A stretch of 64,000 nucleotides of DNA from Chthoniobacterales bacterium (GTDB lineage: Bacteria; Verrucomicrobiota; Verrucomicrobiia; Chthoniobacterales; UBA10450). Shown piece by piece: positions 678-62,785 of the stretch. The first letter of the stretch is position 1; each line of letters starts with the position of its first letter. Position numbers and translations under genes: made by a program. The notes beneath the pieces were generated by a model. It was not told the origin of the DNA. It worked only from the letters and a program-made list of their open reading frames with translations, and did no database searches. The stretch covers positions 30,514 to 94,513 of the forward strand of contig JBBROO010000005.1 in assembly GCA_038229295.1 (NCBI GenBank), read 5' to 3'.

Positions 678-1865
678 ATGGCAGACGATATACCAGAGGA
701 AAGGCGAGAGACGACCGGAAGCAAGATTCCACGATGGGCGTATTGGGTCGCGGGCGTCCTCGTGCTTTTTTTCTTACTGCGCGGTTGCTTCGGCAAGAAA
801 CAAATTTCAAGCGGGCCGCCACCCGCGCCGGTGATTGTCGATCTTGTAAAACAACAAAATGTGCCGGTGCAATTGCACGCCGTCGGTAACGTGCAGCCGT
901 TCACATCGGTCACAGTCAAGTCGCTCGTGTCCGGGCCGATCGAGAAGGTCCACTTCAAAGAAGGCCAGGACGTGAAGAAGGGCGATTTGCTTTTCACGAT
1001 CGATCCACGGCCGTTTGAAGCCGCGATGAAACAAGCGCAGGCGAATCTTGATAAGGACATGGCGCAGTCGTTGAATGCGCAGAAGGATGCGGTGCGCGCG
1101 TCAGACCTGGTCAAGAAAGGCGCGATCGCCGCGCAACAAAACGACCAGACGATTTCCAATGCGGTTTCCGAAAGCGCGACGATTCGCGGCGATCAAGCCG
1201 CGCTCGATACCGCGAAATTACAGGTCGAATACGCGTCCATTCGCTCGCCCATCGATGGACGCACCGGCGCGGTGTTAATCCACGAAGGCAACCTGGTGAA
1301 AGCGAATGATGATGCGTCGATTCTAGTCGTGATCAACCAGGTGCATCCGATTTACGTGCAGTTCTCGGTGCCGGAACAAAATCTGGACGCGATCCGGCCG
1401 CGCATGAAAGAGGGCGAGCTCGAGGTGGCGGCTAATCCGCCTAACGAGCCCGACCATATTTCGCACGGCGTGCTCACGTTGATCGACAACGCGGTCGATC
1501 AAAGTACTGGCACGGTGAAATTGAAGGCGACGTTCCCGAATGAAGACGAAGCGCTGTGGCCGGGAGAATTTGTGAACACGACGCTGACGTTATCGAATCA
1601 GGCGAATGCGATCACGGTGCCGACGAAGGCGCTGCAGCCGGGTCAGAAAGGGCAATACGTTTTTGTGGTGAAGTCCGATCAGACGGCCGAGATGCGCATT
1701 GTCGATCTTGCGCGAATCGAGGGGCCGATCGCGGTGATTAACAAAGGCGTGCAGGCGGGCGAGAATGTTATCGTGGATGGGCAGATCGCCGTTCGACCGG
1801 GCGGAAAAGTTCAGCCGAAGAATCCAGTGCCCGGCGGCGCGCCTAACAAACCAAGCCAGCCATGA
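678..1865 (+). CDS. RND efflux periplasmic adaptor (membrane fusion protein, HlyD/AcrA family)
   Basis: 395 aa, N-terminal TM helix, adaptor hallmarks (VTVKSLVSGPI, IRSPIDGRTG), ATGA overlap with the downstream RND pump. Confidence 0.85.
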   Translation: MADDIPEERRETTGSKIPRWAYWVAGVLVLFFLLRGCFGKKQISSGPPPAPVIVDLVKQQNVPVQLHAVGNVQPFTSVTVKSLVSGPIEKVHFKEGQDVKKGDLLFTIDPRPFEAAMKQAQANLDKDMAQSLNAQKDAVRASDLVKKGAIAAQQNDQTISNAVSESATIRGDQAALDTAKLQVEYASIRSPIDGRTGAVLIHEGNLVKANDDASILVVINQVHPIYVQFSVPEQNLDAIRPRMKEGELEVAANPPNEPDHISHGVLTLIDNAVDQSTGTVKLKATFPNEDEALWPGEFVNTTLTLSNQANAITVPTKALQPGQKGQYVFVVKSDQTAEMRIVDLARIEGPIAVINKGVQAGENVIVDGQIAVRPGGKVQPKNPVPGGAPNKPSQP

Positions 1866-4800
1866 GCATTCCAGAGCTCTTCATTCGCCGACCGGTCATG
1901 ACCACGCTGGTCATGAGCGCCGTCATTATTTTTGGCTGGGCGGCATATCGATCGTTGCCGGTGAGCGATCTGCCGAATGTGGATTTTCCGACGATCAACG
2001 TCGGCGCGAGTTTGCCCGGAGCGAATCCGGAAACGATGGCGTCATCGGTCGCGACCGTGTTGGAGCAGGAATTTTCGACCATCGCCGGCATTGATTCGAT
2101 GACTTCGATCAGCGCGCTTGGGAGCACGAGCGTGACGATTCAATTCAATCTTGATCGCTCGCTCGATTCCGCGGCGCTCGATGTGCAGGCGGCGATTTCG
2201 CGAGCGACGCGGCGATTGCCGCAAAACATGCCGAGTCCGCCCTCGTATCAGAAAGTAAATCCGGCGGACCAACCGATTCTTTATGTGGCGCTGATCTCGC
2301 CCACGCTGCCGCTGTCGCAAGTGGATGAGTTCGGGCAGACGACGATGGCGCAACGCATCTCGACGGTGAGCGGTGTCGCGCAAGTGCAGGTGTTCGGCAC
2401 GCAAAAGTACGCGGTGCGCGCGCAGGTCGATCCGAACAAACTCGCGGCGCGCGGGATCGCGCTCGATGAAGTTTCGGAAGCGATCAACAAAGCGAATGTG
2501 AATTTGCCGACGGGAACGCTCTACGGAAAAGAGCAGGCGTTTACGGTGCAGGCGACGGGGCAACTGCAGGATGCGATGGCGTTTCGCAAGTTGGTGGTGA
2601 CGTACCGAAATGGATCACCGGTCCATTTGGAAGAGCTCGGTAACGTCATCGACGGAACGCAGAACGATAAGGTCGCGAGTTGGTATAACGACACCCGCGC
2701 GATCGTGCTCGCGATTCAACGGCAACCGGGAACGAACACGGTCGCGGTGGTGGATGGCATTCGAAAATTACTGCCGACATTCGAGAAGCAAATGCCGGCG
2801 GCGATGGACTTAAAAATTTTGTTCGACCGCTCGGAATCGATTCGCGCGTCGGTGCACGATGTGAAGTTCACGCTCGTGCTCGCGATTTGCCTCGTTGTGC
2901 TGGTGATCTTTTTGTTTCTGCGCACGCTCGCGGCCACGCTCATTCCGAGCCTCGCCATGCCGCTGTCGATCATCGGGACATTTGGCGTGATGTATCTCTT
3001 CGGCTTCAGCCTCGACAATCTTTCGCTCATGGCGCTGACCTTGTGCGTCGGCTTCGTCGTCGACGACGCCATTGTTGTTCTCGAGAACATCATCCGTCAT
3101 GTCGAGCGCGGTGAGCCGGTGATGGAAGCGTCGCTACGGGGATCGAACGAGATCGGATTCACCGTCATTTCCATGACCGTGTCGCTGGCGGCGGTGTTCA
3201 TTCCGATTTTGTTCATGGGCGGATTGTTCGGCCGCTTGCTTCATGAGTTTGCCGTTACCATCACGACCGCCATTCTCGTCTCCGGATTTGTTTCGCTGAC
3301 GCTCACGCCGATGCTCTGCAGCCGCTTCCTCCGGCCGCACGATCCGAACAAACATCACGGCAGATTTTACGAAGCGATGGAGCGTGTCTTCGAACGAATG
3401 CGCAATTTTTATGAGCGCACGCTGCAGGTCGCGTTGCGGCACCGGCTCGCGGTTTTGGTCATCGCGATCGCCCTTTTGCCCGCGACGGCGCTTCTGTTCA
3501 AGCTGAGCAAAACCGGGATTTTTCCAACCGACGATCTCGGCGCCATTTTCGCATTTACGGAAGGATCACAAGACATCTCCTTCGATGCGATGGTCCAACA
3601 TCAGCAGCAGGCCGCGGCGATCGTGAAAGAGAATCCTTACGTTGATCGCTTTATGTCAACGGTCGGCGCGGGCGGGCCGAATATTTCCGGAAACTCCGGC
3701 CGCATCTTCATGCTTCTTAAGCCTCGATCGCAGCGGCCATCCGCGCAGCAGATTATCGAGCAACTGCGACCGAAGCTCGCCCAAATACCGGGCATTAAAA
3801 TTTTTCCACAGGTGCTGCCGACAATTCGTATTGGCGGCAATCTATCGAAGGCGGCGTATCAGTACACGCTTTTCGGGAGCGATCTGAAACAGCTTTACGA
3901 AGTCGCCCCGAAGTTTGAGGAGAAAATCCGAGGTATCTCTGGCCTAACGGATGTGAATTCCGATCTCTATCTCAAAACTCCGCAGGCGATGGTGAACATC
4001 GACCGGGAGAAAGCAGCCGCGCAGGGAATTTCGCCGGAACAAGTCGAAAACACACTCTACAACGCTTACGGCGCGCGCCAGGTCTCGACCATTTACACGC
4101 CAACAAATCAGTACTGGGTCATTCTCGAAGTCGAACCACGCTTTCAACGCGATCCCGCGTCGCTTTCGCAGCTCTACGTAAGATCGACAAATGGTAAGCT
4201 GGTCCCGCTCGGCGCAGTCACCAGGATTGACCGCACGGTCGGCCCGCTCACCGTTTCGCATCTCGGCCAGCTTCCCGCGGTCACCATATCGTTCGGGCTA
4301 AAACCAAACGTGTCGTTAGGCGATGTCGTCCCGAAAATTCAGGACATCGCCCGCCGCGAATTACCTTCGACCATCAGCACCGGTTTCCAGGGAACGGCGC
4401 AAGCGTTTCAAAGTTCTTTCGCCGGTCTGGGGCTGTTGCTGTTGATGGCCATCCTCGTCATCTATCTCGTCCTCGGTGTTCTCTACGAAAGTTTCATTCA
4501 TCCCATCACCATCTTGTCCGGCCTGCCGTCGGCCGGCTTCGGCGCGCTGCTCACGCTTTTGGTTTTTGGAATGGAGCTCAATATCTATTCCTTCGTCGGC
4601 ATCATCATGCTCATCGGCATCGTGAAAAAGAATGCGATCATGATGATCGATTTCGCGATCGACGCGCAACGCCGCGAAGGCAAAAGCCCGGCGGATGCAA
4701 TCTACGAAGCGTGCTTGGTGCGATTCCGTCCGATCATGATGACGAGTGTGGCGGCATTGATGGGAACGTTGCCGATCGCGCTCGGGTTCGGCGCGGGATC

Positions 4801-5008
4801 GGAATCACGACGCCCGTTAGGCATGGCCGTGGTCGGCGGTTTGCTCTTCTCGCAACTCCTCACGCTCTACATCACACCGGTGATTTATTTATATTTGGAG
4901 CGTTTGCAAAATGGGCGAACGACCAAAAGGCCGCGGCAAGATCGACATGTTGACCCCACGCCGCTTTCCGTTTCCGAGCGCGAGCCAGAACCAGTCGGCG
5001 CGCGGTAA
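1862..5008 (+). CDS. RND multidrug efflux permease (AcrB/MexB, HAE1 family)
   Basis: 1048 aa, 12-TM two-lobe architecture, conserved VVDDAIVVLENI and KKNAIMMIDFA segments. Confidence 0.9.
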   Translation: MSIPELFIRRPVMTTLVMSAVIIFGWAAYRSLPVSDLPNVDFPTINVGASLPGANPETMASSVATVLEQEFSTIAGIDSMTSISALGSTSVTIQFNLDRSLDSAALDVQAAISRATRRLPQNMPSPPSYQKVNPADQPILYVALISPTLPLSQVDEFGQTTMAQRISTVSGVAQVQVFGTQKYAVRAQVDPNKLAARGIALDEVSEAINKANVNLPTGTLYGKEQAFTVQATGQLQDAMAFRKLVVTYRNGSPVHLEELGNVIDGTQNDKVASWYNDTRAIVLAIQRQPGTNTVAVVDGIRKLLPTFEKQMPAAMDLKILFDRSESIRASVHDVKFTLVLAICLVVLVIFLFLRTLAATLIPSLAMPLSIIGTFGVMYLFGFSLDNLSLMALTLCVGFVVDDAIVVLENIIRHVERGEPVMEASLRGSNEIGFTVISMTVSLAAVFIPILFMGGLFGRLLHEFAVTITTAILVSGFVSLTLTPMLCSRFLRPHDPNKHHGRFYEAMERVFERMRNFYERTLQVALRHRLAVLVIAIALLPATALLFKLSKTGIFPTDDLGAIFAFTEGSQDISFDAMVQHQQQAAAIVKENPYVDRFMSTVGAGGPNISGNSGRIFMLLKPRSQRPSAQQIIEQLRPKLAQIPGIKIFPQVLPTIRIGGNLSKAAYQYTLFGSDLKQLYEVAPKFEEKIRGISGLTDVNSDLYLKTPQAMVNIDREKAAAQGISPEQVENTLYNAYGARQVSTIYTPTNQYWVILEVEPRFQRDPASLSQLYVRSTNGKLVPLGAVTRIDRTVGPLTVSHLGQLPAVTISFGLKPNVSLGDVVPKIQDIARRELPSTISTGFQGTAQAFQSSFAGLGLLLLMAILVIYLVLGVLYESFIHPITILSGLPSAGFGALLTLLVFGMELNIYSFVGIIMLIGIVKKNAIMMIDFAIDAQRREGKSPADAIYEACLVRFRPIMMTSVAALMGTLPIALGFGAGSESRRPLGMAVVGGLLFSQLLTLYITPVIYLYLERLQNGRTTKRPRQDRHVDPTPLSVSEREPEPVGAR

Positions 5009-5179
5009 AGCTGCTCAGAGCGGCGATTTCCTTTCGACTGAACTAGTGGCCGACAGCCTGGCGTCAATCTTTTGATTGCCACAACGAAAATGGACCACGC
5101 CATCTTCGATCTTGATCACGCGCAAGCCCGCGGTGCCGTTGGGGCGACGGGCGGTTGCCTCCCGCGCCAGATGTCGATC

Positions 5180-6475
5180 TTAAGCTGGCGTGGCTGCGCC
5201 TTGTCCGGCACGAACTGCGGCGATAGCCGGAAGCGGCGACGCTTGTAATTTCAACCCGGAAGATTTCGCGGTGGTCTCGTCCGGCCGTCGAACCTTCTTC
5301 AGCAATTCAATTTCGCGACGAATATTATTTTTGTTAGTCGAGAAAATCATCGCGCAGTCTTCCGTGATGATCTCTTGTTCGTAAGCCTTGAGTAATTCCT
5401 GGTCGAATGTATGCCAGCCGCGCGTGCTGCCCGCTTCAATAATGTCAGTGAAAGTGCGGTTTTCCGCTTCCCCGTAGAGCAATGTCTCGCGCGTGCGCAG
5501 ACTGCTGCCCATGATTTCAGTGATGAGTAATCGGCCGCCGGCGGCTTTGTTGACCAGGCGCTGACTAACGATATAGCGCACGGTATCGGCAAGGCGTTGT
5601 CGAACTTGCTGTTCGTCCTCTTTCCCGAACATTCCCAGAATTCGATTCACCGTCTGGCCGGCGTCGATGGTATGCAGTGTCGCGAAGACGACATGTCCGG
5701 TTTCCGACGCCGTTAACGCGATCTCCATTGTCTCGCGGTCGCGAATCTCGCCGACGAGAATCACTTTGGGGGCCTGACGTAACGCGGCGCGTAACCCTTC
5801 GGCGAAACTCGGGAAATCTTTTCCCAGTTCGCGCTGACTGAATATGCAGCGTCGCTGCGGATGCATGTATTCGATCGGATCTTCGAGCGTCACCACGTGC
5901 AATTCCTGCGTCACATTGAGCTCGTTCAACATCGCCGCCAGCGTCGTCGTTTTGCCACTGCCGGTGGCGCCGGTCAGAAAAATGATGCCGTTTTTTTCCA
6001 AAACGATGTCGCGAAAAATCTGAGGCAGTTCCAGCGTCTCGATCGTCGGGATATCCGCCGGCAATCGGCGCATGACGATCGAGTGTCGTCCCTTTTGCTT
6101 GAAAATATTAACGCGAAACCGCGCCAGACCGCTCAGCCCGTAACTGCAATCGCACGAGCCGCGCACATTGAAGTCCTCCAGCAAGCGTTTGTTGCCATCA
6201 ATGACGACATCGGCGATCTGCGCCATTTCTTCCTGGGTAAATCCCTCATTCCGCCCGCTCAATTGAAATTCCTTGAGCGTGCCGTGACTCTGCGCCACCG
6301 GTTGTTTCCCGACCACGAAAAGAAAATCGGGAGCGTCTTTGTCGCTCTCGAGCATCGCCGTCAGCAGCGTATCAAGCCACTGTTTCGTCATACTTTCGAG
6401 TTCTGCACCAGCTCTTTTCAGCAATATCCGCGCCCATATTGCCTCTGGCGTTGCCTGCGCAAGATCGACAATCAC
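5180..6475 (-). CDS. PilT-family type IV pilus retraction ATPase paralogue (431 aa, extended at both termini)
   Basis: Walker A GATGSGKTTT, Walker B/Asp box VILVGEIRD, His box ATLHT; GTG start; no neighbouring pilus genes. Confidence 0.85.
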   Translation of the reverse strand: MIVDLAQATPEAIWARILLKRAGAELESMTKQWLDTLLTAMLESDKDAPDFLFVVGKQPVAQSHGTLKEFQLSGRNEGFTQEEMAQIADVVIDGNKRLLEDFNVRGSCDCSYGLSGLARFRVNIFKQKGRHSIVMRRLPADIPTIETLELPQIFRDIVLEKNGIIFLTGATGSGKTTTLAAMLNELNVTQELHVVTLEDPIEYMHPQRRCIFSQRELGKDFPSFAEGLRAALRQAPKVILVGEIRDRETMEIALTASETGHVVFATLHTIDAGQTVNRILGMFGKEDEQQVRQRLADTVRYIVSQRLVNKAAGGRLLITEIMGSSLRTRETLLYGEAENRTFTDIIEAGSTRGWHTFDQELLKAYEQEIITEDCAMIFSTNKNNIRREIELLKKVRRPDETTAKSSGLKLQASPLPAIAAVRAGQGAATPA

Positions 6476-6504
6476 TCTGGCTAATGTTCTTTTAGTCGTG
6501 TCGC

Positions 6505-8565
6505 ATGAATGCGCCTACCGAACAGCGCCGGCTCGCCGCCATCATGTTCACCGATATGGTGGGCTACAGCGCACTTGCGCAACAGAACGACGCGCTCGCG
6601 CTGGAGCTGCTCGAAGAACATCGCCAAATTCTCCGCGCCATCATCGCGCGATTCCGCGGCCACGAAATCAAAACCATTGGCGACGCCTTCATGGTTGAAT
6701 TTTCGAGCGCGTTGGATGCGGCCAATTGCGCCATCGAAATCCAGCGCACCATGGCGAAGCGAAATCACGATGTGCCTAACGAACGCCAAATTGAGATCCG
6801 GATCGGCATCCACATCGGCGACGTCGTTCATCGCGAGAACGACGTTTACGGCGACGGCGTCAACATCGCCTCGCGCATCCAGTCGCTTGCCCGCCCGGCC
6901 GGCATTTGCATTTCGATGGATGTGGAACGGCAAATCCGGAATGCGCTCGAAGCGCGTTTCGAAAAACTCGCGCCGACCGAATTGAAGAACATTCAGTTGC
7001 CGATGGATTTGTTTCGCATCGTTTTGCCCTGGGAAAAACGTCCGGGCACGATGACCAAAGTGTCGCGCGCACGTCCGCGCGCTTTGTTCATGTCGATCTT
7101 GGCGTTGTCGATCTTGCTCGCCGGAATCGGCGCATGGTTTTGGCGCGCGCATCCGAAATCAACAGCGGTTGCTCCGGTCTCGAAATCGGTCGCAGTCTTG
7201 CCGTTCGTAAACATGAGCGCGGACAAGGAGAACGAATATCTGAGTGACGGGATTACCGAGGATCTCTGCACCGCGCTCACGCAAATCAAAGGACTGCACG
7301 TGCCTGCGCGCACTTCGTCCTTCGCCTTCAAAGGCAAAACCGAAGACATCCGCAAGATCGGCCAGCAATTAAACGTCGCGACGGTGCTCGAAGGCAGCGT
7401 GAGCAAAGCGGGAAACAAACTTCGCATCACCGCGCAACTCGTTAACGTGGCCGACGGTTTTCATCTTTGGGCGGCGAATTACGATCGGGAGATGACCGAC
7501 ATTCTCGACATTCGGACCGAAATTTCCCGGCAGGTAGTGGACGCATTGAAAGTCGAACTCGGGATCGAAGAGACGCAGCGCCTTGCGAAAAAGCCAACTG
7601 AGACTTCGGAAGCGTACCAGCTCTACTTGTTAGGCCGCTTTGAATTTAACCGGTTCACCGAAGCGGGTTTCAACAAAGCGGTCGAAGATTTCAAGCGCGC
7701 GATTGAGCTCGATCCTTCATTTGCTCTGGCTAATGCCGGTCTGGCCGAAGCGGACAACATGCTCGCCTACTGGAATTTTGTTTCGCCCAAAGTCGGTTTC
7801 CCCGAGGCCAAGCGAGCGGCTGAGCGCGCGTTGCAGCTGGATCCGGCGCTGGCCGAAGGTCACAGCGCACTCGGCTTCGTTCTTTATGAATACGAATGGC
7901 GTTTCGCGGATGGTGAGCGTGAGCTCGCCGAAGCTGTTCGGCTCAATCCGCGCTCCGCCACGGCGCACTTGTGGTATGGCGAGTTTCTCGTTGTCATGGG
8001 ACGTTTTCCCGAAGCGCGGGAGCAATTCGAGCGCGCGAAAGAATCCGATCCGCTCTCCGTCCGGTTAGTTGTCGATCTTGCGACCTGGTACTGGTTCCAG
8101 CGGCAAGCTGAACCGGCAGTGACGCAGTTGCAGAAAGCGATCGAGATGGATCCGGCGAACAGCCTTAGCCATCACTTCCTTGCTTTCATTCTTTTGCACA
8201 TGAACAAACTCCCCGAAGCGGTAAGCGAGGTGGAAAAGGCGAACACATTTGAGGCCATCTTCACCGCCGATGAAAATGCGGAGCTGCGAAAGACATACGA
8301 AACGTCGGGTGCGCCCGCGTTTTTTCGCAGAGAAGCAGAGATGATGCAGCGATGGATCGCGCGCGGACGATATCGTTCGGCCTTGATCATCGCGTTGCAT
8401 TACACCATCGCCGGCGACAACGAGCAGGCGCTTCATTGGCTCGATCGCGCGGTCGACGAACGAGCCGGCTGGCTGCCGGAATTGAAAAGGGAACCAACGT
8501 GGGACGCTTTTCGTTCGGATCCGCGCTTTGTCGCGTTGTTGAAAAAAATAGGATTGGAAAAATGA
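6505..8565 (+). CDS. class III adenylate/guanylate cyclase fused to a TM segment and TPR-like repeats
   Basis: N-terminal cyclase homology domain (FTDMVGYS, IKTIGDAFMVEF, RIGIHIGDV), one TM helix, C-terminal TPR-like repeats. Confidence 0.8.
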   Translation: MNAPTEQRRLAAIMFTDMVGYSALAQQNDALALELLEEHRQILRAIIARFRGHEIKTIGDAFMVEFSSALDAANCAIEIQRTMAKRNHDVPNERQIEIRIGIHIGDVVHRENDVYGDGVNIASRIQSLARPAGICISMDVERQIRNALEARFEKLAPTELKNIQLPMDLFRIVLPWEKRPGTMTKVSRARPRALFMSILALSILLAGIGAWFWRAHPKSTAVAPVSKSVAVLPFVNMSADKENEYLSDGITEDLCTALTQIKGLHVPARTSSFAFKGKTEDIRKIGQQLNVATVLEGSVSKAGNKLRITAQLVNVADGFHLWAANYDREMTDILDIRTEISRQVVDALKVELGIEETQRLAKKPTETSEAYQLYLLGRFEFNRFTEAGFNKAVEDFKRAIELDPSFALANAGLAEADNMLAYWNFVSPKVGFPEAKRAAERALQLDPALAEGHSALGFVLYEYEWRFADGERELAEAVRLNPRSATAHLWYGEFLVVMGRFPEAREQFERAKESDPLSVRLVVDLATWYWFQRQAEPAVTQLQKAIEMDPANSLSHHFLAFILLHMNKLPEAVSEVEKANTFEAIFTADENAELRKTYETSGAPAFFRREAEMMQRWIARGRYRSALIIALHYTIAGDNEQALHWLDRAVDERAGWLPELKREPTWDAFRSDPRFVALLKKIGLEK
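7091..7115 (-). repeat. tandem pair of the word inside the cyclase TM helix
   Basis: TGTCGATCTTggcgtTGTCGATCTT (offset 15 nt), translated MSILALSIL. Confidence 0.9.
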
Positions 8566-9485
8566 AGGCGCAGTTTGAAAAGGAACAATCGGATGCGGGT
8601 GAGTTTCAACGGCAGGAGGACGCATTCCGTGAATCGATTGGAAGATCGACATCTTATCCTGCGGTCGCGGGCCGCTATCATCTTTACGTTTCGCTGGCCT
8701 GTCCGTGGGCAAGTCGCACCATCATTTTTCGAAAGCTGAAAGGACTCGAAGAAGCGATCGGCCTAACGATTGTCGATCCAATTCGAGATGAGAAAGGTTG
8801 GGCCTTCCGGCCGGAGCGCGATCCGGTGAATGGCTTCGAGTATTTGCGCGAAGCCTACGCCGCGACCGATCCGAATTTCGATGAGCGTGTAACGGTGCCG
8901 GTGCTTTGGGACAAGGAAACGAAAAAGATCGTGAACAATTGCGAGGACGATATCTGCGTGATGTTCAACAGCGCCTTCAACGACGTGGCCGCAAATAAAG
9001 ATGTCGATCTTATGCCGAAAGAAATCGAAGCCGAGCATGCGAAACTGAGCGACTTCATTTACGACAACATTAACAACGGCGTTTACAAAGCCGGTTTCGC
9101 CACGCGCCAGCGGCCCTACGAGATTTCCTGCCGAAAACTTTTCGAAGCGCTCGATGAGTTAGAAAACCGCCTAACGAAATCGCGTTATCTTTTTGAGAAT
9201 CGAATTGTCGAAGCGGATTGGCGATTGTTTTGCACGCTCGTTCGTTTCGACGTTGTCTATCACGGCCACTTCAAATGCAACCTTCGCCGCATCATCGATT
9301 ATCCGAACCTGCAAGGCTATCTGATGGATCTCTATCAGCAGCCCGGCATCGCCGAGACGGTCAACTTCGATCACATCAAGCGTCACTATTATATGACGCA
9401 CGAGCAGATTAATCCGACGCGCATCGTCCCGTTAGGCCCGATTGTCGATCTTATGCAGGCGCACGGGCGAGAAGCGTTGCCGTAG
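8562..9485 (+). CDS. yqjG: Xi-class glutathione S-transferase / glutathionyl-hydroquinone reductase
   Basis: Start taken at MKAQFEKE (ATGA overlap with cyclase stop; tracked ORF 8352.. is over-extended); diagnostic YHLYVSLACPWASRT motif. Confidence 0.75.
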   Translation: MKAQFEKEQSDAGEFQRQEDAFRESIGRSTSYPAVAGRYHLYVSLACPWASRTIIFRKLKGLEEAIGLTIVDPIRDEKGWAFRPERDPVNGFEYLREAYAATDPNFDERVTVPVLWDKETKKIVNNCEDDICVMFNSAFNDVAANKDVDLMPKEIEAEHAKLSDFIYDNINNGVYKAGFATRQRPYEISCRKLFEALDELENRLTKSRYLFENRIVEADWRLFCTLVRFDVVYHGHFKCNLRRIIDYPNLQGYLMDLYQQPGIAETVNFDHIKRHYYMTHEQINPTRIVPLGPIVDLMQAHGREALP

Positions 9486-9896
9486 GTGCGCACCGCCCGT
9501 TCACTTGCGACATGATTTCGGCGTCTCCTTTTCTGCCTGTGCCGTGAGCGAGCATCCAAATACCGCCCACGAAAAGCGCTGCGATCCAAGCACAAGCCAG
9601 CACAGCGATTGTTAGAGTTTTTTTGTTTTGTGAGTGCAAGTGGAAGCTCCCTGCTGCCCAGCAATTTCAAGCAGGGCGCGTTCCATTTCGCGCATGCAAA
9701 AACGCGGGAAATCGCCGCCATCCGCTACGAAAATGCGCGCGGAAGTTCAGCGTTGAATGTCCAGCGATTTTTGTGGCCGATGACTTGCTCCTAAGATCGA
9801 CATGAAAGCCGCGCGGCGATTTTTTCGCGGCTCGTAAGAATCGGACATGGACGCAGCCACGAATCAGGTACAGCTTGCGCTGCGACCGCGCCTCAA

Positions 9897-12788: not shown

Positions 12789-12797
12789 CTTTCTTCC

Positions 12798-12992: not shown

Positions 12993-13015
12993 GCATCGAA
13001 CGAGCGGCCGCGCGT

Positions 13016-49143: not shown

Positions 49144-49175
49144 GATCAAATCGTGCGCGCCATTGAAGACGGCAG

Positions 49176-51277: not shown

Positions 51278-51568
51278 CTATTCCGAGAGCGTGCTCTCTT
51301 TCGATTGCAGTTTGTCGTCTTTGAAAACGATCGTCACCGTCTCTTTGCCCTGCCGATAAACGTAGGTCGTTTTCTTCATGACGATGAAATCCTTGTTGTC
51401 GATGGAAGTGGGCGGGCCAAGAATCGATTCCACCTGCTTCTTCGACATGTTCTCCGTGATTTGATCGACGTTCGCTTTGGTGATGCGGCGTTCACTGCAT
51501 GATACGCCGAGCACGATTACGAGCACCAGCGTGAGTCGCGAAATGAATCGTAAGATCGACATGTTCAT
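51278..51568 (-). CDS. small lipoprotein (BamE/SmpA-OmlA-like) embedded in the nuo operon
   Basis: 96 aa, MNMSILRFISRLTLVLVIVLGVSC signal peptide with Cys, MSKKQVESILGPP block; ATGA overlap with nuoD stop. Confidence 0.55.
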   Translation of the reverse strand: MNMSILRFISRLTLVLVIVLGVSCSERRITKANVDQITENMSKKQVESILGPPTSIDNKDFIVMKKTTYVYRQGKETVTIVFKDDKLQSKESTLSE

Positions 51569-52899: not shown

Positions 52900-52915
52900 T
52901 GCTCATCATGATCTA

Positions 52916-53876: not shown

Positions 53877-54329
53877 ATGACATTGCCGGAACGGATCGAT
53901 TCGGATTTGAAGGAAGCTATGCGCGCTAAGGCGGCGCAGAAGCTGAGCGTTTTACGCATGCTCAAAGCCGCGCTCAAGAACGCCGCCATCGAGAAGTCCG
54001 GTGCCGATGCGGAGATGAGCGACGCCGATGTCACCCAGGTCATCCGCAAACAGGTGAAGCAGCGTCAGGATTCGATCGAGAGTTTTGAAAAAGGCGGGCG
54101 TGCCGAACTGGCGGCGAAGGAGAAAGAGGAACTGTCGATCTTGCAATCGTATCTGCCGCAGCAGATGGGCGCCGAAGAAATCGCCGACCTTGTGCGGCAA
54201 ACTATTTCCCTAACGAACGCATCATCCAAGGCGCAGATGGGCATCGTCATGAAAGCGGTGCAGGAGAAAGCCGCGGGACGGGTGGATGGGAAGACATTGA
54301 GTCAGGAGGTCCAGCGACAGCTTTCATGA
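53877..54329 (+). CDS. GatB/YqeY domain protein
   Basis: 150 aa, IDSDLKEAMRAKA...LSVLRMLKAALKN typical YqeY N-terminus. Confidence 0.8.
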   Translation: MTLPERIDSDLKEAMRAKAAQKLSVLRMLKAALKNAAIEKSGADAEMSDADVTQVIRKQVKQRQDSIESFEKGGRAELAAKEKEELSILQSYLPQQMGAEEIADLVRQTISLTNASSKAQMGIVMKAVQEKAAGRVDGKTLSQEVQRQLS

Positions 54330-54330
54330 A

Positions 54331-54425
54331 GAAAACGTTCAACGTTCAACGTTCAACGTTTAACGTCGAACGACTACATTCTGAATTGAACGTTGAGCGT
54401 TGGACGTTGAGCGTTGGGCGTTTTC
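54331..54425. repeat. heptamer-array hairpin repeat between yqeY-like gene and ispD
   Basis: GAAAACGTTCAACGTTCAACGTTCAACGTTTAACGTCGAACG, loop with TCTGAAT, TGAACGTTGAGCGTTGGACGTTGAGCGTTGGGCGTTTTC. Confidence 0.8.
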
Positions 54426-54435
54426 TGTTCTTCTG

Positions 54436-55122
54436 ATGTTGACCGCGATCATCGTTGCGGCCGGCAGCAGCCGTCGCATGGGCTTCGACAAACTTTTTGC
54501 GCCGCTCCTCGGCAAACCGGTGCTCGCGCACACGCTCGATGCTTTCGAGAGCGCGAATTCAGTGGACGAGATTCTGATCGTCGCGCGTGAAGATCGACAT
54601 GGTGAAATCGAAAAGCTGGTGCGCGATCAAGCGTGGAAGAAAATTCGAGCTGTCGTTAGGGGCGGAGAGCAGCGACAGGACTCGGTGCGAGCCGGTTTGC
54701 AAAGCTTGACCGAAAGGACGCATTACGTGGCTGTGCACGACGCGGCTCGACCGCTCGTCACTCCCGAACAAATCGAGCGCGTCTTCGAGCAAGCGCAGGT
54801 GGATGGCGCGGCCGCGCTCGCCGAAGCGGTGAGTGACACGTTGAAAAGAGCAGATGTCGATCTTGTCGTGACCGAGTCGGTAGATCGACATCAACTTTTC
54901 GCGATGCAGACGCCGCAGATTTTCGAGCGCGAGTTAATCGACGAAGCGTATCGCGCGGTGGCGACCGAAAAACTAAACGTCACCGATGAGGTGTCGGCGT
55001 TGCAACATATCGGTCGGCAAGTCGGACTCGTGCCTAACGAAGATTGCAACTTCAAAATAACTTACGAGCGCGACCTGAAATTGGCCGAGCTAGTCCTGCG
55101 CGAGCGGCAGGAACGCCGCTAA
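54436..55122 (+). CDS. ispD: 2-C-methyl-D-erythritol 4-phosphate cytidylyltransferase
   Basis: Start trimmed to MLTAIIVAAGSSRRMG (tracked ORF starts in the repeat); TAA stop fused to an AAGATCGACA word. Confidence 0.85.
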   Translation: MLTAIIVAAGSSRRMGFDKLFAPLLGKPVLAHTLDAFESANSVDEILIVAREDRHGEIEKLVRDQAWKKIRAVVRGGEQRQDSVRAGLQSLTERTHYVAVHDAARPLVTPEQIERVFEQAQVDGAAALAEAVSDTLKRADVDLVVTESVDRHQLFAMQTPQIFERELIDEAYRAVATEKLNVTDEVSALQHIGRQVGLVPNEDCNFKITYERDLKLAELVLRERQERR

Positions 55123-55131: not shown

Positions 55132-56112
55132 CTATACCAGCATCGGATCGACCGGAACGAGCGGGCGAATGAGTTCGGCGATGGCGGGGATGTGTTTCAA
55201 TTTGAAGCGGCCGCCTTTTTTTAATTTCGTGGTTTCGAGTTCGCTGACGCGGAGGAGCTGGCCGTTTTTCCAAATCCATGCGTCGGGATTGTAGGGACCG
55301 ACGCGGCGCGGATCGGTCCAGATGTGGATCGACAACAGGCGATCGGTCACTGCCGCGGCGATGTGCATCGGTCCGCTGTCGACGCTGATGACGAAACTGG
55401 CGGCGCGAATGAGGCGGATCATTTGCAGCAGCGATGTCTGATTCGTTAGCTCGACGCAATTTTCCAGCGGTTCGATCTTGCGCGTGGATTTCCCGATGAG
55501 CACGACGCGCGTCGGAGCGAAGGCCCGGCAAATTTCTTCGATGATTTTGTTCGAAAGCGATTTGCCGTCGCCGCGCGCGAACGGATGCAAAACGACATAT
55601 GGCGGATACTCGTCGAAGCGCGGGAGTGGATCACCACTCGGGATTGGGCAGCGCAACGCCTCGCCAATCTTTCCGCCGGCGAGCTCGGCCAATTTCAAAT
55701 AACGTTCCACGGCGTGATCGCGCCGAGTCACTTTCGCGGTGCGATGATAAAACAAGCGTGAGCCTTCGCGCCCGTCGCTCATCCCATAAATTTGTTTCGC
55801 GCCGCTGGCTTTGGCGATAATGGCGCTACGAAGTAAACCCTGAAAATCGAGCGCGACATCGGGCCGAAGTTGTTTTGTTTGGCGCAGCCAGGAAAGGAAT
55901 CCGGCCGGCGCGCCCAATCCGGTTAATTCGCCGCGCGGGAAAATGTGAACGTGATTGATGTCCTGATTTCCGCGCAGCAGCGGGGCCCACTCCGGATTGA
56001 TGACCCAGGTGATTCGCGCGTGCGGATGCGCGTCGCGAACGGCGGCAACGGCGGGCAATGTGTGGACGACATCGCCTAACGAGCTCGGCTTGATGACAAG
56101 AATGGACTCCAT
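55132..56112 (-). CDS. glycosyltransferase family 9 (LPS heptosyltransferase-like)
   Basis: ILVIKPSSLGDVVHTLPAV N-terminus and C-terminal DSGPMHIAAA block. Confidence 0.8.
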   Translation of the reverse strand: MESILVIKPSSLGDVVHTLPAVAAVRDAHPHARITWVINPEWAPLLRGNQDINHVHIFPRGELTGLGAPAGFLSWLRQTKQLRPDVALDFQGLLRSAIIAKASGAKQIYGMSDGREGSRLFYHRTAKVTRRDHAVERYLKLAELAGGKIGEALRCPIPSGDPLPRFDEYPPYVVLHPFARGDGKSLSNKIIEEICRAFAPTRVVLIGKSTRKIEPLENCVELTNQTSLLQMIRLIRAASFVISVDSGPMHIAAAVTDRLLSIHIWTDPRRVGPYNPDAWIWKNGQLLRVSELETTKLKKGGRFKLKHIPAIAELIRPLVPVDPMLV

Positions 56113-56980: not shown

Positions 56981-57730
56981 TCAGCTTTTCGGGATGCGTT
57001 GATCTTGCGGGATGTCGATCTTGTCTTCGAGAAATTTTAATCGGCGCAGCAATGTCGGAAGTCGTTCCTTTTCGCCGGCATCGTAAAGTTGGCGCAAACG
57101 TTCATACGCCTCGCGCTCGCGCCCGTCGCAATACGAAAGTTCATAGGCCGAAAAGCGTTTGTCGTAACTGGGCGCGCCCGGCTGCGCCGCTGCTTTCGCG
57201 AAATACTCAGACGCATGTTCGTGATCGTTGTATTTGTCTTTGTAAAGGCGCGCTAACGCTTCGTAAAGCTGGGGCTTGTCCGGATTATTTTTAATTCCGC
57301 GCTCGAGAAAATCTTTTCCGATCGCGAAATATTCCCGCTGCTTTTTCAATCGCGCCGCCAGCGGCAGCGTTTGATCATTCATCGCGGCCACGCTCGCGTT
57401 CCACGCCATGTGCCATGCGGCCATGTCCCAAAACAAAATCGCGCGCGGTTGCAGAGTGGTGGCCTGGCGAAACAACAAAAAGACGCGGCCCCATTCGGTT
57501 CGCTCCCAGGCGACGTGCGCTTGAATGAAAACGATGTCGGCGATGATGGAGCGAAATCCGCTGAGCGCCGCGACGAAACCGAGCTGGCCGATTTGTTCGC
57601 GTAGACTGAGATCGAGTTGGGTTCCGCGCAAATGTAGTTGTCGATCTTGCGCGAGGAGATTGCGCTCGAGCGGGAGTCGCGCGGCGCCGAAGACGATCAC
57701 GATCACGATTACGAGCACGAGACGGATCAT
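56981..57730 (-). CDS. TPR-like repeat membrane-anchored protein
   Basis: Start trimmed to MIRLVLVIVIVIVFG (ATGA overlap with the permease stop); the rest of tracked ORF 56981..58066 overlaps the permease gene. Confidence 0.5.
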   Translation of the reverse strand: MIRLVLVIVIVIVFGAARLPLERNLLAQDRQLHLRGTQLDLSLREQIGQLGFVAALSGFRSIIADIVFIQAHVAWERTEWGRVFLLFRQATTLQPRAILFWDMAAWHMAWNASVAAMNDQTLPLAARLKKQREYFAIGKDFLERGIKNNPDKPQLYEALARLYKDKYNDHEHASEYFAKAAAQPGAPSYDKRFSAYELSYCDGREREAYERLRQLYDAGEKERLPTLLRRLKFLEDKIDIPQDQRIPKS

Positions 57731-58587
57731 AATTCCTTGCCGTAGAAAACGACGATGGCGAGAAGCGTGTAGACGATCGTGTAAAAAAATCCCATCGCGG
57801 CCGTTTTGAAAAACAACGCGAGCGGAATGGCGGTCCCGGCAACGACGGCATCTACGAGATTGAAGGCTTGCAGATCCGGAAAGATGAGCGCGACGAGCGC
57901 GAGAAACATTTGCGTCAGCCAACCAGCGCCTTGTTGTTGCAGCCAATATTCGCGCGCGGTTTCCTGGAGATGTCCGATGAAATAAACGAAGACCATGACG
58001 ACAACGGTGAAAATATTCGTCGTCGCGAATGTGGTAACGAACAACGTGAGCGCGGCGAGCAAACACGCTTTCAGGAAAATGAGGACGATGACGGCGAAGA
58101 TGTCGATCTTAAGAGCGGACTCGCGCACGACGCGCAAGGCGTCGTTGAGTTGTTCGTTAGGTGCGGCCGCCATTTGCCGCATGGTTTCGTGCATAACAGT
58201 TTGCTCGCGCGCGTAAAGCACCACGCAAAACAATGCACTCATGATGAGCGTGCTCAGTGCGAGCAAGGCGAGGACGCCGAAAAGTTTGCCGATGAGATAT
58301 TCAAACCGCGGCACCGGCTTAGCCAAAATGGTGTAGGCGGTGCGATCTTCGATGTCTTGCGGAAGCAATCGCGCGGTCGCGAGAATGGCGAGCAGCGAAG
58401 TAAAGATCGACATCGTGCCTAACGAAACATCTTTCAGGATCTGGAACTCCTGCTGAAAACTGAATCGCGCCATAAAGGCGGAGCTGCCGATGAGAATAAG
58501 TGCGAAGATGAGGACGAAGTAGAAAACTTTCTGGCGAATCAGATCGGTCAGCGTGTTCGACGCGATGGCGATAACGCGTGTGATCAT
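57727..58587 (-). CDS. ABC-2 type transporter permease
   Basis: 286 aa, 6 TM helices, translationally coupled to the upstream ABC ATPase. Confidence 0.6.
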   Translation of the reverse strand: MITRVIAIASNTLTDLIRQKVFYFVLIFALILIGSSAFMARFSFQQEFQILKDVSLGTMSIFTSLLAILATARLLPQDIEDRTAYTILAKPVPRFEYLIGKLFGVLALLALSTLIMSALFCVVLYAREQTVMHETMRQMAAAPNEQLNDALRVVRESALKIDIFAVIVLIFLKACLLAALTLFVTTFATTNIFTVVVMVFVYFIGHLQETAREYWLQQQGAGWLTQMFLALVALIFPDLQAFNLVDAVVAGTAIPLALFFKTAAMGFFYTIVYTLLAIVVFYGKEL

Positions 58588-59435
58588 TTGTCCTTGCGCG
58601 TCGCGTCGAGAAAGAAGCGCTCGAGTGTCGTTGTCGATCTTCGGCGGGCCACGAGTTTCGCGTTCGAATCTTTCGCGAGAACTTCGATTTGGTTCACGAG
58701 ATCGTTGGACGCATTTTCCAAAACGAGCTCGGTTTGGTTTTCGAGCGCGAGCAATTCTTCGAGGCGACCTTCGCGCACCAGCCGCCCGTTCGCGAGAATC
58801 CCGACGCGATCGCAGACTTCCTGCACTTGCGCGAGCAAATGGGAAGAAAGTAAAACGGTAATTCCGCGCCGCTTAAGATCGACAATCAAATCTCGGATGT
58901 CGCGCGAGCCGGCGGGATCGACACCGGCAGTCGGCTCGTCGAGCACGACGACTTGCGGTTCGTTGATCAACGCTTGCGCGAGTCCAATGCGTTGCAGCAT
59001 TCCTTTTGAGTACGTGCTCAGACGTTGATCGCGCGCGTCCGTTAGGCCAACGAGATCGAGCAATTCGTCGATGCGCCTTTGCAAACTGGCGCCGCGCAGC
59101 CGGCAAAGCTTTCCGAAGAAGCGCAGCGTCTCAGTGCCGCTAAGAAATTTATAGAAATATGGATTCTCGGGGAGAAATCCAACGGCTGCGCGACTGCGGA
59201 CGCGCGAACTGTCGCGGCCAAAGATCGCGGTGGTTCCGCGCGTGGCCGAGACGAGCCCCAAAATGATTTTCAGGGTCGTGCTTTTGCCAGAGCCGTTTGG
59301 CCCGAGAAGTCCGTAGACTTCGCCGGGCGTGACGGCAAGATCGACATCTTGCACTGCGATGATGGCGCGGCGCCCAAACGGCACCGGGAAAACTTTCGTT
59401 AGGCCGCGCACGACGATGGCTGGTTCAGTAGTCAT
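58584..59435 (-). CDS. ABC transporter ATP-binding protein
   Basis: Start trimmed to MTTEPAIVVRGL; Walker A GPNGSGKST, signature YSKGMLQR, Walker B VVVLDEPT. Confidence 0.9.
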   Translation of the reverse strand: MTTEPAIVVRGLTKVFPVPFGRRAIIAVQDVDLAVTPGEVYGLLGPNGSGKSTTLKIILGLVSATRGTTAIFGRDSSRVRSRAAVGFLPENPYFYKFLSGTETLRFFGKLCRLRGASLQRRIDELLDLVGLTDARDQRLSTYSKGMLQRIGLAQALINEPQVVVLDEPTAGVDPAGSRDIRDLIVDLKRRGITVLLSSHLLAQVQEVCDRVGILANGRLVREGRLEELLALENQTELVLENASNDLVNQIEVLAKDSNAKLVARRRSTTTLERFFLDATRKDK

Positions 59436-59703
59436 GGCGAATTTCAAAACCGCTGGCTTCGACCGGCGCTTCCAATTTGTTCTCGGTCGTCTTGCGAATG
59501 TGCGCGCGCAATTCGCTTTGCCCAATCGCTTCCAAAAATCCGCGCACTTCGCCCTCCTCGCCGCTGATCTGCATCTCAACGCGACCATCGACAAGATTCC
59601 GCACCCAGCCTTTGAGATCGAAACCCTTGGCGATGTGCCTAACGGACCAGCGGAAGCCGACGCCCTGGACGCGGCCCTCGAAAAAAACCTGCAGTGAGAT
59701 CAT
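59425..59703 (-). CDS. acyP: acylphosphatase
   Basis: 92 aa, GRVQGVGFRW and GWVRN motifs. Confidence 0.85.
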   Translation of the reverse strand: MISLQVFFEGRVQGVGFRWSVRHIAKGFDLKGWVRNLVDGRVEMQISGEEGEVRGFLEAIGQSELRAHIRKTTENKLEAPVEASGFEIRHDY

Positions 59704-61597: not shown

Positions 61598-62785
61598 TTA
61601 CGGCACGTCGTAAAAGCCTTCCGCGCGCAGCAGCAGGAATGTGGTGGGGCTATAAACATTGCCGCGGACGAAGACCTGGTAGAATTGAAACGCATCCGTT
61701 AGGGCGACGATGGCGATGGCCAGACATAGGATGCGCCGCGACCAATTACTCCCGCAGCGTCCGGCAAGATCGACAATCGCAAACGCGGCGGCCAGGCGAA
61801 TAAACATGTCGATGAAAAGGACGAGCCGCACATTGACGATCGGCATTTGGCCGAAAAAGAGAATGGCGCTGGCGAAATAGATGAGTGCGAGATTGCGACC
61901 ATGCCGAACGGAATCGTTAGGCGAAGTCGCGAAGCCGACGATCGACAAAATGAAAACGACTGGCGCGATGGCGAAGAAGTCGAGCAGGTAGCGGAACCAC
62001 GGGCCTTTCTCGTAATGGACGGTGTAATCGAGCGTCTGTTGGAGGGACGCGTAGGTGCGATACGTCCGGAGGAAATTGCCGACGCCGCCGCAGATCGCGA
62101 TTTCGGTCGTTAGGTAAAGCAGCGGCGCTGCGATCAACGGCAGCAGCAGCCACTTCGACGGCCGCAATTTCATTGCCCGGAAATAATATGCGGCTGCAAT
62201 CGCCATCATCGGGTAAAGCAGCACCGCAGATTCTTTCGTCAACAACGCGAGGCAAAGCGAAAGGCCGAGCGCGATAAGATCGACAATGGAACGTCGTCGC
62301 CAGCATTGGTCGAAGAAGTAAAGGCACGCCAGCATGATGACCGCGGCGAAGGTTTCTTGCGTAGCGCGGCGCGAAAGTCCGGCCGCGAGCGGCGAGGTGA
62401 TCAAAAAAATCCCGCACAAGATCGACATGTTGCGGCCGGCGAGATTTTCGGCGAAGCGCGCGCCGAGGATGACCAATGCGATTCCCGAAATGAAAGAAAG
62501 CCACGCGATATTGTCAGGAGTGAAGCCGCCGAGAATTTTGCAAGTCAGCGCCGCCGGCAAAATAAATCCGATGCGCAGCGGCAACGGCGACTTCTGCAGA
62601 TTTTCGTTAGTCGGATAATCGTGCAGGATTTGGCGAATGCCGGCGACGCCGTGATCGTTGAATGTCTGCGCGAAGACGGTATAAGCGCGCTCGTCCCAAC
62701 CGGTGCGCTTCACGCCGAACATCGTCGGCAGACGAACGGCGATCGTGATTGCCAACAGCAGCAACAGCCAGGTTCTCGAACTCAT
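61598..62785 (-). CDS. polytopic membrane protein, probably family 39-like (ArnT/PMT_2) glycosyltransferase
   Basis: 395 aa, about 10 TM helices, first loop with DERAY-type acidic motif (GWDERAYTVFAQ). Confidence 0.5.
   Translation of the reverse strand: MSSRTWLLLLLAITIAVRLPTMFGVKRTGWDERAYTVFAQTFNDHGVAGIRQILHDYPTNENLQKSPLPLRIGFILPAALTCKILGGFTPDNIAWLSFISGIALVILGARFAENLAGRNMSILCGIFLITSPLAAGLSRRATQETFAAVIMLACLYFFDQCWRRRSIVDLIALGLSLCLALLTKESAVLLYPMMAIAAAYYFRAMKLRPSKWLLLPLIAAPLLYLTTEIAICGGVGNFLRTYRTYASLQQTLDYTVHYEKGPWFRYLLDFFAIAPVVFILSIVGFATSPNDSVRHGRNLALIYFASAILFFGQMPIVNVRLVLFIDMFIRLAAAFAIVDLAGRCGSNWSRRILCLAIAIVALTDAFQFYQVFVRGNVYSPTTFLLLRAEGFYDVP

Follow-up and report, generated by a model that had tools for sequence, protein, structure and literature searches.

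A seven-nucleotide DNA word, CGTTAGG (reverse complement CCTAACG), recurs 58 times in a 64-kb stretch of a Chthoniobacterales genome (contig JBBROO010000005.1, positions 30,514 to 94,513) and is over-represented there about 20-30-fold. The sequence examined is this 64-kb stretch of one genome, hereafter the window, which has a G+C content of 56.1%. A codon model self-trained on the open reading frames (ORFs) of the window maps 61 genes onto it, leaving 93.9% of the DNA coding and 6.1% non-coding; the start codons of this map are approximate, while its frames and stops are reliable. The window carries ordinary chromosomal genes, among them the nuo operon, GlnRS, GluRS, TilS, two RND efflux systems and enolase. 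Three encode PilT/PilU-family type IVa pilus retraction ATPases (5180-6424(-), 37161-38258(+) and 38261-39421(+)), with scores of 356, 415 and 428 bits against a curated cutoff of 319, and no pilin, ComEA or ComEC gene is visible within the 64 kb. Genome and metagenome scans find the closest sequences among Candidatus Udaeobacter, Chthoniobacterales and Verrucomicrobiota metagenome-assembled genomes, at no more than 85-86% protein identity. Exact-protein look-ups matched nothing on record, and the species of the window itself is missing from the collections. On sequence similarity, the window is assigned to a Candidatus Udaeobacter-like Verrucomicrobiota genome.

Enrichment, form and placement of the word

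The window holds exactly 58 copies, 30 read as CGTTAGG and 28 as CCTAACG on the forward strand, and every one lies where the original prediction had placed it. Dinucleotide shuffles (n = 100) yield 2.8 ± 1.5 copies with a maximum of 6, an order-2/3 Markov background with the word masked yields 1.8-2.1, and a codon-order shuffle yields 3.3 ± 1.6. Synonymous-codon shuffling within genes (n = 300) gives 5.4 ± 1.8 copies with a maximum of 11, a figure that takes in about 5 copies at stops or between genes that such shuffling cannot touch. The enrichment survives all of these dinucleotide- and codon-aware nulls, a test that had been set for it at the outset (58 copies against 2-5). In an unbiased scan, CGTTAGG is the top over-represented 6-mer and 7-mer of the window (z = 36), and its density is 0.9 per kb.

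The base before the word is T in 37 copies, C in 16, G in 3 and A in 2, and the base after it (position +8) is C in 42 of 58; the expected continuation with C holds for 24 of the 30 forward copies. Conservation is limited to these two positions, giving an extended form Y-CGTTAGG-C with an informative length of about 9 nt. The flanks are otherwise unrelated, and the copies are therefore not part of a longer repeat. No prior description of Y-CGTTAGG-C was found in the searchable literature, where CGTTAGG and its companion words (discussed below) appear as primers only and where no uptake-sequence-like word or competence report was found for Udaeobacter or Verrucomicrobia.

The two orientations are balanced (30:28) and interleaved along the 64 kb with no switch point, and a sister word, AAGATCGACA, is equally balanced (51:49). 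Spacing is slightly more regular than random, though not significantly so (coefficient of variation 0.86 versus 0.98 ± 0.12). An island test within the window found no word-free segment and no island of atypical composition. Only two genes longer than 1 kb lack both CGTTAGG and AAGATCGACA, namely the PilT/PilU-family gene at 5180-6424 and the gene at 21672-22850.

Copies are spread over nearly every gene, and 53 of the 58 (91%) lie within genes. They are read in all four stop-free frames, as had been claimed: x-L-G (NCG-TTA-GGN, 16 copies), V-R (GTT-AGG, 5), P-N-x (CCT-AAC-GNN, 16) and L-T (CTA-ACG, 16). Four further copies supply the TAG stop of a gene, at 8763, 9171, 12798 and 36315. Two of these stops (36315-36317 and 12798-12800) had been recognized before, and those at 8763-8765 and 9171-9173 add to them. 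With the x-L-G and V-R copies, the stop-supplying copies make up 25 on the coding strand (21 in frame and 4 at stops), and the other two frames account for 32 on the template strand. A single copy is fully intergenic, so that the word has no intergenic or terminator bias relative to the 6.1% of non-coding DNA. No inverted CGTTAGG pairs occur in the per-copy contexts or among pairs within 30 nt, which were viewed without a dedicated repeat search.

Several of the codons involved are rare, and a sizeable share of their total use falls inside the word, in keeping with the earlier impression that TTA and CTA are scarce. TTA makes up 131 of 2147 leucine codons, 16 of them inside CGTTAGG (12%), and CTA makes up 62 of 2147, again with 16 inside (26%). 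CCT accounts for 55 of 955 proline codons (16 inside, 29%) and AGG for 22 of 1324 arginine codons (5 inside, 23%). The sole tRNA gene of the window, tRNA-Arg(CCT) at 12717-12789(+), decodes AGG, the very rare codon of the V-R frame; 8 nt separate it from the copy at 12797, which provides a TAG stop.

Pressure on the DNA word

A saturation test asked what share of the window's peptide sites able to host the word without a protein change are so spelled. CGTTAGG spells 16 of 28 P-N-[ADEGV] sites (57%), 9 of 13 S-L-G sites, 5 of 7 P-L-G sites and 2 of 6 T-L-G sites. At A-L-G sites, where the spelling would be GCGTTAGG with G at position -1, TTA is used in 0 of 20. Since S-L-G and P-L-G mostly take TTA and A-L-G never does, the specificity extends to DNA position -1, which is not G. 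A codon-pair or peptide preference cannot explain this absence, and a DNA element that disfavors G at -1 can.

Each copy in the nuo region was mapped to its counterparts in 80 orthologous loci of other species. Where S-L-G is invariant, the rare spelling TCG-TTA-GGC recurs independently in many species. In the NuoH gene (46350-47465(-)), the S-L-G at 47035-47041(-) is kept in 77 of 80 orthologs, with the spelling TCGTTAGGC in 33 of the 80, and that at 46930-46936(-) is kept in 76 of 80. The S-L-G at 44513-44519(-), in the gene at 43018-44826(-), is present in 68 of 69 orthologs, and 12 of these use TCGTTAGGC. The copy at 53193-53199(+) covers the S-L-G of G-L-S-L-G-E in the acyltransferase (FabD-like) gene at 52874-53851(+), as first read from the sequence, and the TCG-TTA-GGC spelling (TCGTTAGGN) recurs in 35 of 52 orthologs.

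At less constrained sites, the word of the window has overwritten ancestral residues. T-M-G, found in 65 of 66 orthologs, has become T-L-G at 49926-49932(-), and P-T-V, the form in most orthologs, has become P-V-R at 49334-49340(-), both in the gene at 49280-51268(-). Likewise, A-E-V has become S-L-T at 54209-54215(-) (gene 53877-54329(+); orthologs mostly A-E-V or A-E-T), P-S-G has become P-N-G at 51897-51903(+) (gene 51565-52899(-); mostly P-S-G or P-G-G), and F-I-T, found in 45 of 67 orthologs, has become F-L-T at 44308-44314(+) (gene 43018-44826(-)). Orthologs also mostly differ at 41080-41086(-), where P-L-G stands for P-A-T or P-I-T (gene 40110-41537(-)), at 41698-41704(+), where P-N-E stands for I/V-R-E (gene 41540-43018(-)), and at 54654-54660(+), where V-V-R stands for I-I-P or I-V-P (gene 54400-55122(+)). 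Of the mapped copies, about half fall on variable residues and alter them; the rest are synonymous spellings of conserved S-L-G. The pressure acts on the DNA word, not on a peptide or codon pair, and it suffices to bring in rare codons, TAG stops and changed amino acids. The nulls, the four frames, the saturation test and the residue overwriting all agree on this, which was the central inference of the original prediction.

One-mismatch neighbors were recounted against a background from which the word was masked and against a codon-aware null. Variants at the core positions 2-6 are depleted (46 observed versus about 78 expected), transversion neighbors included, and variants at positions 1 and 7 are enriched (30 versus about 16). 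Among the variants described earlier as frequent, TGTTAGG, the commonest (10 versus 1-3.7 expected), and CGTTAGT (8 versus 1.8-2.5) are enriched, whereas CGTTAGC is only marginally so (7 versus 3.3-4.9). A background artefact was rejected as the source of the depletion, which persists with the word masked and under the codon-aware null. Depleted core neighbors beside enriched edge variants mean that recognition looks all-or-none over the core and looser at the edges.

The other copies, listed with the strand of the word and then with their gene, show the same range of peptides. In the x-L-G frame, S-L-G is spelled TCGTTAGGC at 4314-4320(+) (gene 1862-5008(+)), 30043-30049(+) (29916-30854(+)), 34985-34991(+) (34750-35514(+)) and 56075-56081(-) (55132-56112(-)). 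A further S-L-G lies at 58418-58424(-) (57727-58587(-)), with AAGATCGACA 5 nt off. P-L-G is spelled CCGTTAGGC at 4815-4821(+) (1862-5008(+)), 32534-32540(+) (32212-33213(+)), 37195-37201(+) (the pilT-family gene 37161-38258(+)) and 44594-44600(-) (43018-44826(-)), and T-L-G is spelled ACGTTAGGT at 26171-26177(-) (26092-27786(-)). In the V-R frame, V-V-R is spelled GTCGTTAGG at 37457-37463(+) in the same pilT-family gene and at 53344-53350(+) in the acyltransferase (FabD-like) gene, and S-V-R is spelled TCCGTTAGG at 59638-59644(-) (59425-59703(-)).

In the P-N-x frame, P-N-E is spelled CCTAACGAG at 1440-1446(-) (678-1865(+)), 21151-21157(+) (18452-21643(-)), 23007-23013(+) (22843-23472(-)), 26229-26235(+) (26092-27786(-)) and 31480-31486(-) (30952-32169(+)). 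The spelling CCTAACGAA serves P-N-E at 6775-6781(-) (6505-8565(+)), 29654-29660(+) (28968-29810(-)), 49134-49140(+) (47422-49200(-)), 55033-55039(-) (54400-55122(+)) and 58155-58161(+) (57727-58587(-)). P-N-G is spelled CCTAACGGG at 18925-18931(+) (18452-21643(-)). P-N-D takes CCTAACGAT at 25584-25590(-) (24648-25979(+)), with AAGATCGACA 5 nt off, and at 61915-61921(+) (61598-62764(-)), and CCTAACGAC at 34363-34369(-) (33238-34614(+)).

In the L-T frame, G-L-T is spelled GGCCTAACG at 3943-3949(-) (1862-5008(+)), 14792-14798(+) (13667-14830(-)), 20240-20246(+) (18452-21643(-)) and 47953-47959(+) (47422-49200(-)), and at both 59040-59046(+) and 59397-59403(+) (58584-59447(-)). N-L-T is spelled AACCTAACG at 10637-10643(-) (9897-11435(+)) and 24195-24201(-) (23590-24561(+)), and A-L-T is spelled GCCCTAACG at 11312-11318(-) (9897-11435(+)) and 61697-61703(+) (61598-62764(-)). 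Single cases are S-L-T as AGCCTAACG at 24342-24348(-) (23590-24561(+)), C-L-T as TGCCTAACG at 35139-35145(-) (34750-35514(+)), T-L-T as ACCCTAACG at 38051-38057(-) (the pilT-family gene 37161-38258(+)) and Y-L-T as TACCTAACG at 62108-62114(+) (61598-62764(-)). The stop-supplying copies at 8762-8768(-), 9170-9176(-) and 12797-12803(-) end the genes 8763-9038(-), 9171-9386(-) and 12798-13019(-), respectively, and that at 36312-36318(+) ends the DUF883 gene 36018-36317(+). The sole fully intergenic copy, at 9430-9436(+), has TGTCGATCTT 6 nt further on.

A carbamoyltransferase (NodU/CmcH-type) gene at 13667-15519(-) is frameshifted near 14830-14851 into N- and C-terminal ORFs; it is a pseudogene, or else the assembly contains an indel there. 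A standalone HNH endonuclease gene (HNH_5) with weak similarity to the HNH domains of IscB and Cas9 lies at 39529-40113(+), flanked by pilU and the nuo operon. This endonuclease was considered as a driver of the word and rejected, as its presence in relatives is unrelated to word density (0.21 versus 0.22 per kb).

Companion words, relatives and turnover

The only other word of this class in the window is AAGATCGACA, with 100 perfect copies (for example at 7091-7115 and 21643-21668). It is very sharp, as its one-off variants number only about 28 in all beside the 100 perfect 10-mers. Ten of the 100 copies are fully intergenic and 4 partly so, a mild enrichment relative to the 6.1% of non-coding DNA. 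The 8-mer GATCGACA occurs 132 times in the window. The co-occurrence of CGTTAGG and AAGATCGACA, raised as a question in the original prediction, is at chance overall (16 pairs within 60 nt versus 14.5 expected), and there is a small excess at close spacing. The arrangement CGTTAGG-N3-11-TGTCGATC(TT) occurs 6 times against about 0.5 expected (9430-9452, 25569-25590, 34985-35008, 37195-37212, 37457-37484 and 58403-58424; scan-corrected P = 0.0012). A composite signal of the two words was rejected, given the chance-level pairing overall and a close arrangement in only 6 of the 58 copies.

The comparison with the clade covers 160 related loci (2.18 Mb) from relatives that are at least 14% divergent in protein. 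Pooled over these loci, CGTTAGG occurs 411 times against 91 expected (4.5-fold), control words of the same composition reach 1.0-1.3-fold, and the word is above expectation in 105 of 125 loci. Its density is 0.9-1.0 per kb in the window, 0.82 in the nearest relative (L090), 0.99 in L078 and 0.71 in L077, and in most other relatives it is 0.1-0.3 per kb, against a chance value of about 0.04. Intensity thus varies 10-fold between lineages and is lineage-specific. A dialect is visible at position -1, where T precedes about 90% of the copies in relatives, compared with 64% T and 28% C in the window. About 30% of CGTTAGG sites are common to the window and word-rich relatives, against 14-19% identity for arbitrary aligned 7-mers. 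These shared sites are invariant S-L-G and G-L-T peptides, which leaves about 70% of sites lineage-specific.

Other words dominate elsewhere in the clade: GATCGACA in a broad subclade of relatives and GAGCACGA in another. GATCGACA, GAGCACGA and CGTTAGG occur alone or combined, and roughly half of the loci have no hyper-abundant word. In one subclade (L059, L061, L064, L066, L072 and L079), (C)GAGCACGA, an intragenic word, attains a density of 0.6-0.8 per kb, and GGTTGAGA/CTCTCAAC reaches 0.62 per kb in L062. A further word, AATGACGA, is abundant in L005, L014, L034, L036, L099, L124 and others, at up to 2.3 per kb. It was rejected as a sister word, being part of a palindromic insertion element, AATGACGAATTCGTCATT, that resembles repetitive extragenic palindromes (REP) and miniature inverted-repeat transposable elements (MITE); its copy-number differences between near-identical genomes fall in unaligned indel DNA.

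Gains and losses were polarized with outgroups in close pairs of relatives, which took the place of strains of the window genome. CGTTAGG shows 4 gains, 6 losses and 3 ambiguous changes, and GATCGACA shows 2 gains and 11 losses. Nearly all of these changes are single substitutions, and the few multi-base differences fall in patches of 10-30% divergence between genomes that are otherwise 3-8% apart. The pairs L100 and L135, L086 and L096, and L040 and L057 differ by 2.5-4.7% in nucleotide sequence and contain 100-nt patches of 10-31% divergence. Divergence between close pairs is strongly over-dispersed (index of dispersion 3.3-7.1), and together with the divergent patches this identifies the lineages as mosaic recombinants. 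The mosaics indicate that homologous recombination with less closely related lineages is frequent. Ordinary point changes and imported tracts both create and remove the word.

Viral sequences were scanned for CGTTAGG-N3-11-TGTCGATC and for pairs of AAGATCGACA no more than 30 nt apart. None of 2.9 million viral contigs carries the signature, a weak test in that no phage of these hosts was positively identified among them. Matches were chance or tandem occurrences only, none at a host-like density, and are uninformative on the real phages of these hosts. One unrelated viral contig of 44.6% G+C from a human-microbiome sample (L171, IMGVR_UViG_7000000433_000137) contains 7 isolated CGTTAGG copies in 12 kb, at 66-10260, all on one strand and lacking the preference for C at +8. 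This cluster is probably a selection effect of the scan.

Candidate mechanisms and significance

Very probably, Y-CGTTAGG-C reflects a DNA-level, orientation-independent drive or selection of the class that includes the DNA uptake sequences (DUS) of Neisseriaceae, the uptake signal sequences (USS) of Pasteurellaceae and the highly iterated palindrome HIP1 of cyanobacteria. Like DUS and USS, which are 9-12 nt long, the word is short and non-palindromic, occurs about once per kb equally on both strands, lies within genes in several frames, seemingly more often where the protein tolerates it, appears to have dialects in related species and is explicable by molecular drive rather than by a benefit of each copy (PMC2817400, PMC3630211). 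Competent cells take up DNA with DUS or USS preferentially, through a type IV pilus receptor. CGTTAGG differs from them in belonging to another phylum, the Verrucomicrobiota. HIP1 and the alternate HIPs are enriched 15-300-fold at about 1 per kb, mostly within genes and in all frames (PMC4390886, PMC5861425). They have no gene-level function and are replaced by other words in particular lineages, and the one-off variants of HIP1 gather at the outer positions (PMC4390886). In all of these respects CGTTAGG is alike, as it is in leaving biased repair, selection and a part in transformation as competing mechanisms. HIPs, however, are GC-rich palindromes tied to known methyltransferases (CGATCG, GATC), whereas CGTTAGG is non-palindromic, contains the rare TTA/TAG at its core and is not known to have a cognate methyltransferase. 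In its statistics, the word has what defines uptake sequences as well as HIP-type words, and it lacks one defining feature of each, being neither terminator-associated nor built of preferred codons on the one side, and non-palindromic on the other.

We favor the reading, with a probability of roughly 0.45, that CGTTAGG may be a self-DNA tag in the uptake and/or recombination of DNA from relatives, a suggestion that draws on sequence patterns and on analogy with known systems. A factor would read the word on double-stranded DNA in either orientation and bias which alleles persist, and the word would build up to about 1 per kb wherever protein function tolerates it. The reader would most likely act on DNA acquired from relatives by uptake and/or recombination, with word-bearing fragments incorporated preferentially, a form of molecular drive. 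Its specificity might depend on a determinant that can be exchanged, for example a motif-specific methyltransferase as has been reported for HIP1, and this would explain why related species carry unrelated words in differing combinations. The reading is favored because density and symmetry match USS/DUS, because the overwriting of the proteome matches that on record for USS/DUS, which sit at poorly conserved residues (PMC2817400), because the lineage is visibly recombining, because the 64 kb alone contain genes for three PilT/PilU type IVa pilus ATPases and because no viral contig carries the signature. In cyanobacteria, HIP1 raises natural transformation in a way that depends on methylation (bioRxiv 10.1101/2024.09.10.611283), and its abundance correlates with DNA-uptake machinery (bioRxiv 10.64898/2026.06.24.733823).

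Several observations weigh against such a self-DNA tag. Type IV pili are common without competence. The polarized CGTTAGG changes in close pairs are too few to show a bias toward gain. About half of DUS and USS lie in terminators, often as inverted pairs (bioRxiv 10.1101/2025.10.24.684340), and 35-65% lie in ORFs (PMC2817400); CGTTAGG, in contrast, is 91% genic, with 1 of 58 copies intergenic and no inverted pairs in the contexts and pairs viewed. USS frames follow preferred codons (PMC2817400), whereas three of the four CGTTAGG frames use rare ones (TTA, CTA and CCT). Finally, at least two unrelated words per genome, and unrelated words in sister species, set these genomes apart from those with DUS or USS and are not predicted by a single slowly evolving pilin receptor.

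The alternative that survives best, though we consider it unlikely, is a repair-coupled ratchet. An orphan methyltransferase would mark CGTTAGG, and methyl-directed or sequence-specific mismatch correction would favor the strand carrying the word, so that word-creating errors are kept and word-destroying ones reverted. Over-representation would follow as a side effect, as Elhai's HIP model has it, and the word would play no part in DNA exchange. That model predicts saturation near 1 per kb (PMC4390886), the density seen here, and the depleted core variants and single-nucleotide deviations at the first and last positions recall those reported for HIP1. TGTTAGG, the commonest variant, is a possible deamination product of 5-methyl-C at position 1, the patchy combinations of unrelated words in sister species resemble the distribution of methyltransferase specificities, and the changes between close relatives are mostly single substitutions. 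The 64-kb window, however, contains no methyltransferase, Vsr-like or MutH-like gene, and neither CGTTAGG nor its companion words are present in the Nanomotif text or supplements. Many relatives also have no hyper-abundant word, and CGTTAGG therefore cannot be the general strand-discrimination signal of the clade. The known repair-driven biases are small. In E. coli, very-short-patch repair at CCWGG can likewise raise its target and deplete the neighbors, but its effect is modest and limited to T:G correction; CGTTAGG is enriched about 25-fold, and its transversion neighbors, which T:G-specific repair would leave unaffected, are depleted too.

Direct selection of each copy, for the sake of chromosome structure, as a binding site of a nucleoid-associated or chromosome-organizing protein appears improbable. 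Selection of this kind has been proposed for HIP1 from site conservation and periodicity, and Xu et al. argue for selection (PMC5861425). The orientation-independent, even spread of CGTTAGG over genes would suit it, as would the slight, non-significant regularity of spacing and the sharing of sites about twice as often as arbitrary 7-mers. Yet the sites in common fall on invariant S-L-G and G-L-T peptides, for which saturation in each lineage by itself leads to the same outcome, and the other 70% or so are lineage-specific. The many close relatives without such a word are unexpected for an architectural function, and a genome with two or more unrelated words would call for several proteins of this type.

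A Chi-like or polar signal, by which CGTTAGG would modulate RecBCD/AddAB or orient FtsK through FtsK-orienting polar sequences (KOPS), is very improbable. Chi is a short over-represented word, and Chi, KOPS and architecture-imparting sequences (AIMS) resemble CGTTAGG as short over-represented oligomers recognized by a DNA-processing machine. Chi-like action is also one of two mechanisms suggested for HIP1 in transformation (bioRxiv 10.1101/2024.09.10.611283). These signals, however, are strongly co-oriented with replication, and the Chi-like behavior raised in the original prediction did not hold up: neither CGTTAGG nor AAGATCGACA shows a strand skew or a switch along the window, and CGTTAGG is balanced relative to transcription as well (25:32). 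On this lack of skew, orientation-dependent systems, including Chi, KOPS, and primase or transcription signals, are rejected. CGTTAGG is also several times denser than Chi in E. coli, and one genome carries two unrelated words. An artefact of composition, codon usage, a repeated peptide or dispersed REP/MITE remnants, which are longer and mostly intergenic elements, has a negligible probability, as the enrichment survives all nulls, the flanks are unrelated, 53 of 58 copies lie in genes in four frames, same-composition control words are not enriched, TTA occurs in S/P-L-G and never in A-L-G, and nothing marks CGTTAGG as a mobile element in the way that AATGACGA is marked in some relatives.

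To our knowledge, hyper-abundant genomic words are known from very few groups, namely Neisseriaceae, Pasteurellaceae and cyanobacteria, and in each they have been central to understanding self-DNA recognition. The Udaeobacter-like lineage is uncultured and among the most abundant in soil, and CGTTAGG points to sequence-specific DNA self-recognition, possibly natural transformation, in this dominant lineage. The word would also exemplify a non-adaptive force whose strength suffices to alter conserved residues in core enzymes (Nuo subunits, FabD active-site codons) and to dictate which stop codon a gene uses. The combinations of unrelated words in sister species are a natural experiment in which phylogenetic profiling could identify the reader proteins, which are still unresolved for USS and HIP1. 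CGTTAGG and its companion words may further be of practical use as markers in binning, in recognizing DNA of recent acquisition and in the design of DNA with which to transform these organisms.

More tentatively, and with some doubt, Udaeobacter-like soil Verrucomicrobia may possess a repertoire of independent, exchangeable tagging systems, each with its own non-palindromic word (Y-CGTTAGG-C, AAGATCGACA, CGAGCACGA and others) raised to about 1 per kb through self-DNA discrimination in natural transformation, perhaps in a methylation-dependent manner. If so, the lineage would be capable of natural transformation and would use a combinatorial code to recognize its own DNA. No earlier system of this kind would be on record outside Proteobacteria and Cyanobacteria, nor any that combines several unrelated tags in one genome.

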